This document shows, one piece after another, positions 561 through 21,171 of a stretch of 21,171 bases of DNA. Position numbers and translations under genes: made by a program. The notes beneath the pieces were generated by a model, which was not told where the DNA came from, did not search any database, and saw nothing but the letters and a program-made list of their open reading frames with translations. This DNA is from Escherichia coli. GTDB lineage: Bacteria; Pseudomonadota; Gammaproteobacteria; Enterobacterales; Enterobacteriaceae. Each line of letters opens with the position of its first letter. Positions within the stretch are counted from its first letter, which is position 1. The stretch lies in NCBI RefSeq assembly GCF_003334355.1, contig NZ_QOWP01000047.1, one strand, 5' to 3'.

Positions 561-1604
561 ATGAGCGTAATGTTTGATCCAGACACGGCGATTTATCCTT
601 TCCCCCCGAAGCCGACGCCGTTAAGCATTGATGAAAAAGCGTATTGCCGCGAGAAGATAAAACGTCTGCTAAAAGAACGTAATGCGGTGATGGTTGCCCA
701 CTACTATACCGATCCCGAAATTCAACAACTGGCAGAAGAAACCGGTGGCTGTATTTCTGATTCTCTGGAAATGGCGCGCTTCGGTGCAAAGCATCCCGCT
801 TCTACTTTGTTAGTCGCTGGGGTGAGATTTATGGGAGAAACCGCCAAAATTCTCAGTCCGGAAAAAACAATTCTGATGCCGACACTTCAGGCTGAATGTT
901 CACTGGATCTCGGCTGCCCTGTTGAAGAATTTAACGCATTTTGCGATGCCCATCCCGATCGTACTGCCGTCGTCTACGCCAACACTTCTGCTGCGGTAAA
1001 AGCGCGCGCAGATTGGGTGGTAACTTCAAGCATTGCCGTCGAACTTATTGATCATCTTGATAGTTTGGGTGAAAAAATCATCTGGGCACCCGACAAACAT
1101 CTGGGGCGTTACGTGCAAAAACAGACGGGTGGAGACATTCTATGCTGGCAGGGTGCCTGTATTGTGCATGATGAATTTAAGACTCAGGCGTTAACCCGCT
1201 TGCAAGAAGAATACCCGGATGCTGCCATACTGGTGCATCCAGAATCACCACAAGCTATTGTCGATATGGCGGATGCGGTCGGTTCCACCAGTCAACTGAT
1301 CGCTGCTGCGAAAACATTGCCACATCAGAGGCTTATTGTGGCAACCGATCGGGGTATTTTCTACAAAATGCAGCAGGCGGTGCCAGATAAAGAGTTACTG
1401 GAAGCACCAACCGCAGGTGAGGGTGCAACCTGCCGCAGCTGCGCGCATTGTCCGTGGATGGCCATGAATGGCCTTCAGGCCATCGCAGAGGCATTAGAAC
1501 AGGAAGGAAGCAATCACGAGGTTCATGTTGATGAAAGGCTGCGAGAGAGGGCGCTGGTGCCGCTCAATCGTATGCTGGATTTTGCGGCTACACTACGTGG
1601 ATAA
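561..1604 (+). CDS. nadA: Quinolinate synthase A
   Basis: 347 aa ORF; translation recognised as E. coli NadA, full length, with the C-terminal CxxC Fe-S motif (CRSCAHC). Confidence 0.96.
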
Positions 1605-20363: not shown

Positions 20364-21098
20364 ATGAATAAGAAATCGTTATGGAAGCTAATTCTGATAT
20401 TAGCGATCCCATGTATTATTGGCTTTATGCCAGCTCCGGCAGGATTAAGCGAACTGGCGTGGGTGCTTTTTGGTATTTACCTGGCGGCCATTGTGGGGCT
20501 GGTTATCAAGCCTTTCCCGGAACCTGTCGTACTGTTAATTGCCGTTGCTGCCTCAATGGTGGTGGTCGGTAACTTATCCGACGGTGCGTTTAAAACCACC
20601 GCCGTATTAAGCGGTTACTCTTCAGGTACCACCTGGCTGGTGTTCTCGGCGTTTACCTTAAGCGCCGCATTTGTGACCACCGGTTTAGGTAAACGTATTG
20701 CCTATCTGCTGATTGGTAAAATCGGTAACACCACGCTGGGTCTGGGTTACGTTACGGTATTCCTCGATCTGGTACTGGCTCCGGCAACACCGTCTAACAC
20801 CGCGCGTGCGGGCGGCATTGTGTTACCGATCATCAACAGCGTGGCGGTGGCTTTGGGGTCCGAACCGGAAAAAAGTCCGCGTCGTGTCGGACATTACCTG
20901 ATGATGTCCATTTACATGGTCACCAAAACCACCAGCTATATGTTCTTTACCGCAATGGCGGGGAACATTCTGGCGCTGAAAATGATCAACGACATTCTGC
21001 ACCTGCAAATTAGCTGGGGTGGATGGGCGCTGGCAGCCGGATTGCCGGGCATCATTATGCTGCTGGTCACCCCGCTGGTGATTTACACCATGTACTGA
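20364..21098 (+). pseudogene. ybhI: DASS-family (divalent anion:Na+ symporter-type) transporter YbhI, N-terminal 244 codons only, interrupted by an IS10 insertion
   Basis: The hydrophobic multi-helix translation is recognised as the N-terminal half of YbhI (about 477 aa in reference K-12 as I recall). The reading frame ends ...VIYTMY-TGA, where the TGA is supplied by the first bases of the IS10 terminus (CTGATGAATCCCC). Confidence 0.85.
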
Positions 21099-21171
21099 TG
21101 AATCCCCTAATGATTTTTATCAAAATCATTAAGTTAAGGTAGATACACATCTTGTCATATGATCAAATGGT
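21095..21171 (+). mobile_element. Terminus (outside end) of IS10 / Tn10-type insertion sequence, partial, running off the window
   Basis: CTGATGAATCCCCTAATGATTTTTATCAAAATCATTAAGTTAAGGTAGATACACATCTTGTCATATGATCAAATGG is recognised as the IS10 terminal inverted repeat and adjacent transposase-promoter region, including an IHF-like site (TATCAAAATCATTA) and the Dam GATC site at 21161-21164. The transposase ATG would lie about 30 bp past the window end. Confidence 0.8.

Follow-up and report, generated by a model that had tools for sequence, protein, structure and literature searches.

Very probable IS10-Left-type outside end in ybhI of a natural-type Escherichia coli, and recurrence of its insertion site

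The gene ybhI encodes a putative di/tricarboxylate transporter of the YbhD-regulated ybhHI cluster (PMC9068703). In one contig of Escherichia coli, 21,171 nucleotides long and analysed here in full (hereafter the window), its reading frame closes after 244 codons, shortly before the contig itself ends. This raises the questions of what interrupts the gene, whether the interruption arose in a laboratory or in nature, and whether it is peculiar to this strain. The evidence presented below leaves me in little doubt that positions 21095–21171 are the outside end of an IS10-Left-type element, inserted into ybhI behind its nucleotide 731; the host would be a natural E. coli of a phylogroup-A-like type. 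What the window itself offers on the element is one junction and 77 nucleotides.

A 400-nt query spanning the junction (window 20772–21171) matched ybhI in 5,321 complete E. coli genomes over query positions 1–323 only, that is, up to 21094. From there on, the wild-type gene of strain PSS-12 continues with TCCACC (TCCACCAG), whereas the window reads CTGATGAATCCCC. As IS10 references, both copies were cut from the Tn10 of plasmid R100 (NC_002134). The final 77 nt of the window, with an outside end of the TTTTTATCAAA type, agree with the IS10-Left outside end at every one of the 77 positions. From IS10-Right they depart at four, namely IS bp 24, 25, 27 and 47 (window 21118, 21119, 21121 and 21141); the copy is therefore not IS10-Right, although the first 23 bp are identical in the latter too. 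The original prediction, that ybhI gives way to an IS10 terminus at 21095 and that this may be the IS10-Left copy or a variant, is borne out by this alignment. It had also put the differences from IS10-Right at some three, around 21116–21119 and 21143; there are four, at the positions just given. Among 5,426 complete E. coli genomes, 1,803 contain the same 77 nt, with 6,174 occurrences in total. At the two places inspected, H58 (DH5alpha) and H31 (strain 50579417), a 402-aa gene annotated as 'IS4-like element ISVsa5 family transposase' begins 108 nt from the same end. That the 77 nt of the window match IS10 by chance can be regarded as excluded on sequence grounds.

Table 1. Coordinates of the features discussed in the text, in window positions.
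Feature	Position	Strand	Basis or detail
Left contig end	1..77	+	77 nt of tRNA-Lys + 2 nt, recurring at 209-285; tRNA-Lys annotated in PSS-12
Truncated ybhI ORF, 244 aa of a 477-aa DASS-family anion permease	20364..21098	+	ORF list; Pfam Na_sulph_symp on the product
9-bp target CACCATGTA (ybhI nt 723-731), duplication expected at the far side	21086..21094	.	Duplication seen in L026
IS10 outside end, IS bp 1-77, very probably IS10-Left type	21095..21171	+	77/77 to IS10-Left of R100
Terminal inverted-repeat segment, IS bp 1-23	21095..21117	+	17/23 match to inside end CTGAGAGATCCCCTCATAATTTC
Stretch discriminating IS10-Left/IS10-Right	21118..21141	+	21118 T/G, 21119 A/G, 21121 C/A, 21141 A/G
IHF-consensus-like site AATCATTAAGTTA, IS bp 30-42	21124..21136	+	Pattern match
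RNA-OUT, 3' 32 nt (IS bp 77 to 46)	21140..21171	-	Rfam RF00240 on the L026 copy
Dam site GATC, IS bp 67-70	21161..21164	.	Pattern match

The terminal repeat, the transposase-binding end of IS10, was compared directly with inside ends of the element from L014, L007 and L010. An IHF-like site and a Dam GATC had been predicted in this end, and pattern matches locate both. IHF is known to bind IS10 at the bp 30–42 site and would be expected to do so in the window, and the GATC would overlap the -10 element of the transposase promoter pIN. Scans for consensus promoters and terminators in the IS end, both that of the window and that of L026, found none, neither pIN nor pOUT. The antisense RNA-OUT family (RF00240) is recognized in the IS10-Left-identical copy at L026, at IS bp 115–46 on the minus strand with 97.3 bits. 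Only IS bp 46–77 of this 70-nt RNA are contained in the window, a fragment on which Rfam makes no call, and pOUT and the 5' part of RNA-OUT lie beyond its end. The transposase gene (402 aa, from IS bp 108, on the plus strand) would likewise lie beyond the window; it is present in every inspected complete copy with the same end.

At the junction, TA/C TGA, codon 244 consists of TA and the first base of the element (TAC, so that the tyrosine is kept), and the stop codon TGA is made of IS bp 2–4. A frame closed by a junction-made TGA, giving 244 residues against about 477, was thus correctly foreseen. By this reading YbhI would lack the last 233 residues at its C terminus, which almost certainly leaves no working transporter, and ybhI of this strain appears to be a pseudogene made by a known mobile element. 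Transcription from pOUT, antisense to ybhI, had been expected as well. Its orientation is confirmed; outward read-through I infer, the promoter lying beyond the window. Because RNA-OUT lies on the minus strand in L026, any read-through from pOUT would be antisense to ybhH as well as to the 5' fragment of ybhI.

The abrupt end of the window at IS bp 77 is probably not biology, but the point where the assembler met a repeat. Both ends of the window are repeats of 77 nt (1–77, which recurs at 209–285, and the IS end at 21095–21171), which suggests that the window represents one whole contig from a de Bruijn assembly at k=77, blocked by a multi-copy repeat. On the left, its first letter is base 2 of a tRNA-Lys gene, which is thus cut at its 5' end. 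Positions 209–285 hold a second copy of tRNA-Lys with 2 further nucleotides, and an RtT RNA is called by Rfam at 7–174, between both tRNAs of the segment 1–285.

In order to find the same junction elsewhere, I looked up the exact 244-aa product, together with its counterparts cut at the same point from two further YbhI alleles, for which 30 places were listed. Among these, 13 have an IS10 end at exactly the junction nucleotide of the window, making 14 left-junction contigs when the window is included. An IS10-Left-type outside end is found in the window, L003, L004, L006, L009 and L037, an IS10-Right-type outside end in L005, L008, L011, L039 and L040, and an IS10 inside end, that is, the opposite orientation, in L007, L010 and L029. 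The flanks of these contigs diverge by as many as 79 SNPs over 2.4 kb, or some 500 over 10.7 kb, with SNPs also within 25 bp of the junction, while L029 and L037 share an identical 2.4-kb flank and carry IS10 in opposite orientations. Together the contigs fall into about 12 classes of background and end, with three kinds of IS10 end, so that many independent IS10 insertions must have occurred at ybhI nt 731. One of the contigs, L004 (SRR3823860), is an independent assembly with the same junction and 0 SNPs in 10.7 kb relative to the window. In addition, L026 holds a complete 1329-bp copy at the same ybhI site, identical to IS10-Left at 1329 of 1329 positions and with the CACCATGTA repeat on each side; it encodes an IS4-family transposase (NF033591, 402 bits against a cutoff of 152) as well as RNA-OUT. 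Among the 5,426 complete RefSeq E. coli genomes, no junction at nt 731 was found in either orientation, which leaves this insertion without a finished reference.

The other 17 of the 30 listed places are wild-type contigs that end 2–3 nt past the site, at ybhI nt 733–734 (L012, L030–L036, L038 and L041–L048), many of them from metagenomes or mixed samples. The cause is an A/G polymorphism at +4, nt 735 (CCA/CCG, as seen in L051), at which assemblies of mixed samples fork. Truncations at other positions, taken as controls, show the same contig-end artefact; a product of 238 aa, for instance, is found on 310 contigs. For this reason the exact 244-aa product, present on 322 contigs (394 blocks), was rejected as a count of insertions, and the counts given here take in only directly inspected junctions.

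I consider it probable that the element is a solo 1329-bp IS10-Left-type copy, followed after its inside end by CACCATGTA and the rest of ybhI, rather than Tn10. The competing explanation, which I regard as rather unlikely, is a complete composite Tn10 (∼9.1 kb, carrying tet(B)), whose IS10-Left would border the 5' fragment of ybhI while its IS10-Right formed the far junction. In Tn10, the two IS10 copies stand in inverted orientation around tetR/tetA(B) and the jem genes. Several observations would suit this explanation: in R100, Tn10 uses the IS10-Left outside end as one of its own two termini; the same 77 nt occur in a Tn10 left arm of a natural isolate, where IS10-Left is followed by a gltS-like gene (L002); and the IS10-Right-type outside ends at the same site (L005, L008, L011, L039 and L040) are what the other orientation of Tn10 predicts. 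Moreover, IS10-Left is the textbook 'defective' arm of Tn10 and is reputed to be a weak source of transposase on its own, which would favour movement within Tn10, or in trans.

However, the contigs themselves argue for the solo copy. L028 (GCA_003334355.1), in a near-identical background (1 SNP in 2.2 kb to PSS-12), begins with 158 nt of an IS10-Left-type inside end followed directly by CACCATGTA and the rest of ybhI, which is the right junction expected for the orientation of the window's element. The complete copy at the same site in L026 is likewise solo, and a further solo copy, 1329/1329 identical to IS10-Left and with a target duplication, is present in a complete genome (L017). The points at which the contigs break tell against Tn10 as well. 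IS10-Left and IS10-Right differ in this region at bp 24, 25, 27, 47, 83 and 107, and with one IS10-Left end per genome the stops are predicted at about bp 184 for the window and about bp 78 for the k=31 contig L004. The observed stops, at bp 77 and bp 30 respectively, fall short of these, and the genome therefore probably holds at least two IS10-Left-type ends or copies.

A look-up of 17 predicted N-termini of right-junction products found only MRGSLST-YbhI(243–477), on 1 contig (L028), and a 235-aa product starting at Met243, which comes mostly from other ybhI lesions. The former (L028 142–870, RCQ22703.1) is an open reading frame that starts at an ATG in the IS10 inside end (MRGSLST...), runs in frame into YbhI 243–477, and carries the annotation hypothetical protein. 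Sequences that match IS10-Left fully or almost fully and stand as solo copies, as they do in natural isolates, were noted at L017 2901–4229, L026 168–1496, L028 1–158 and L001 2501–3829, some with fresh 9-bp duplications at different sites; IS10-Left would either move by itself or be mobilised in trans. The last of these copies, in DH5alpha (NZ_CP025520; L001 2142–5077), is an IS10-Left-type copy lying between phoE-like porin fragments and a crl fragment. Its 9-bp repeats do not match (GGCGTTGTA versus CACCCTGCG), an IS10-Right-type copy lies nearby, and the arrangement looks like an IS10-mediated rearrangement.

The original prediction had also considered that the insertion might be left over from Tn10 mutagenesis in the laboratory, which here would mean a K-12 derivative. 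Tn10 and elements derived from it are indeed standard laboratory tools, and DH5alpha carries IS10-Left-type and IS10-Right-type copies, but the backbone of the window makes such an origin extremely improbable. Its best match over 21,094 nt is PSS-12, a human faecal isolate from Ecuador, with 9 mismatches, against 53 mismatches and 1 gap over 20.3 kb for MG1655 (K-12), which places the host among natural isolates rather than K-12 laboratory strains. In PSS-12 ybhI is intact (1434 nt), as it is in K-12. Furthermore, no laboratory strain among the complete genomes has the junction, while it recurs in metagenome assemblies, both environmental and from the gut, as well as in numerous unrelated isolates.

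Within this background, the insertion appears to mark a small sequenced clone. The nadA gene of the window (561–1604) encodes a NadA with two substitutions, Y29C and V136A, that are rare and set it apart from K-12 and PSS-12. An exact-sequence look-up found this protein on 6 public contigs only, of which one, GCA_012531255.1 (65.5 kb), ends at most 1 nt from the ybhI/IS10 junction; it is on this allele and this contig end that the reading of a small clone is based. The NadA protein should thus be a handy marker of the clone. The insertion had been described as strain-specific, which is true in that the K-12 reference lacks it, but not in the strict sense, as it belongs to a small clone and recurs elsewhere.

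That a ybhI contig was falsely joined to an IS10 k-mer, leaving the real gene intact, is hardly credible even though the junction sits at a contig end, where errors concentrate, and many public 244-aa 'products' are wild-type contigs that stop 2–3 nt past the site, since 77 nt of perfect IS10 abut ybhI from IS bp 1 with zero overlap, other read sets independently yielded the identical junction (L003, L004 with 0 SNPs, and more), the copy in L026 is fully assembled with its 9-bp duplication, and one of the contigs with the rare NadA breaks within 1 nt of the same point.

I next consider why this nucleotide was used. The target CACCATGTA shares only 2 of the 6 bases that the strict consensus 5'-NGCTNAGCN-3' (GCTNAGC) specifies, and ybhI has 259 positions that match the latter better, so that the site is not a canonical hotspot. 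Reading C-A-C-C-A-T-G-T-A, it conforms to the relaxed consensus 5'-NRCNNNGYN-3' of Kovarik et al. (quoted in PMC4574204), as do 34 sites in ybhI overall. A non-canonical IS10 site that is hit repeatedly at one nucleotide has been reported (PMC4574204). The suggestion that this was a non-hotspot insertion is therefore correct as regards the misfit to the strict consensus, but the inference drawn from it is not supported, given the fit to NRCNNNGYN and the 14 left-junction contigs in both orientations. Inspection by eye for palindromes or flank symmetry around the target revealed nothing convincing beyond positions 2–3 and 7–8.

The relaxed consensus is followed by the other IS10 insertions in ybhI as well, at nt 443, 829, 931, 1175 and 1241, the first four seen at loci L015, L016, L017, L050, L051 and L052 and the last known from the product look-up. 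The target at nt 443 is CACCGCGCG. Those at nt 829 (TGCTCGGTG) and nt 931 (TGCTGGGTA) carry IS10 in three complete genomes; at nt 931 the copy is IS10-Right-like in one complete genome and identical to IS10-Left in another. At nt 1175 (TGCTATGTT), IS10 is found in both orientations and in two backgrounds. Because several other relaxed sites are used too, repeated insertion at the same nucleotide is a general consequence of IS10 target specificity in ybhI, a gene that tolerates disruption. The site at nt 731 has the most independent events among comparable ybhI sites, an excess for which sampling may account. A reading of nt 731 as a unique hotspot is to be tempered for this reason, since other relaxed sites are hit repeatedly, with nt 1175 as an example.

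A stronger proposal is that nt 723–731 ([C/T]ACCATGTA) form a natural IS10/Tn10 hotspot beyond what the core sequence predicts, owing to flank context or structure or to selection for loss of YbhI, and that IS10-Left is spreading as an autonomous solo element. This is possible, but I hold it doubtful. It is suggested by the number of independent events, at least about 12, among which both orientations and both IS10-Left- and IS10-Right-type copies are represented, together with IS5-family and Mu-like ends within 27 bp. A literature search for ybhI with IS10 or with Tn10 found no papers.

These other elements are observations in their own right. In L020–L024, an IS5-family element (NF033579, 171 bits) adjoins ybhI at nt 722, which puts it 5 bp to the upstream side of where IS10 is inserted. 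The end of this element (...GATTTATTCAACAAAG[C/T]C) looks IS903-like; it occurs in two variants and in several assemblies whose downstream 2.2 kb are identical to PSS-12. In L025 (ERR769162), the end of a Mu-like prophage (com, mom; ...CGTGCGCCGCTTCA) abuts ybhI at CTGCTGGTCACC, 27 bp upstream of the junction. Three kinds of mobile element thus lie within about 30 bp of the junction, although this clustering is partly an effect of the search, as the look-up of the Met243-start product finds only lesions within about 33 nt. A further type of lesion is seen in L018 and L027, where a 1-nt insertion in a run of C in ybhI, at about nt 705–712 (CACCCCCG or CAGCCCCG), results in overlapping ORFs of 248 and 235 aa. 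Such frameshifts add to the evidence for a ready decay of ybhI among natural strains.

The steps by which the insertion would have come about are established for IS10/Tn10, and are inferred for that of the window. An IS4-family DDE transposase would have excised the element, captured the target through symmetric R-C...G-Y contacts of the relaxed consensus NRCNNNGYN, and joined the ends to 9-bp staggered cuts, the repair of which would duplicate CACCATGTA. YbhI would then be cut by the junction TGA to the N-terminal 244 of its 477 residues, and RNA-OUT and pOUT would be directed leftwards, antisense to the ybhI 5' fragment.

Among known systems, the nearest is IS10-Left of the R100 Tn10 (NC_002134; WP_001352368.1), whose outside end is identical to the 77 nt of the window, and to which the complete copies at ybhI sites (L026 and L017) are identical over all 1329 positions. 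In R100, however, IS10-Left is one arm of the composite Tn10, while the copy in the window is probably solo and multi-copy in its genome. IS10-Right (ISVsa5 in NCBI annotation; WP_001339197.1) has the same family, length and organisation, with 15 nt differences over 1329 bp and 4 aa differences in the transposase. It uses the same ybhI site in the five contigs with an IS10-Right-type end, but is unlike the window at the four positions given above. The closest parallel to the site is TACCGGGCG, upstream of cat in plasmid pSU8 (PMC4574204), which is also a recurrent nucleotide that misses NGCTNAGCN, fits NRCNNNGYN and yields a 9-bp duplication. The pSU8 insertions arose under chloramphenicol selection in a laboratory plasmid, in contrast to those in ybhI, which are chromosomal and found in natural isolates.

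Element and mechanism are thus already known, and this is an ordinary gene-breaking insertion, whose consequence is that the strain is probably without the di/tricarboxylate-type transporter YbhI. The recurrent use of the ybhI site is a modest curiosity. Nonetheless, it illustrates that public assemblies form a minable natural record of IS10 target choice, and, because the same nucleotide is hit repeatedly in unrelated strains, that identical IS10 junctions are unsafe as markers of common descent.
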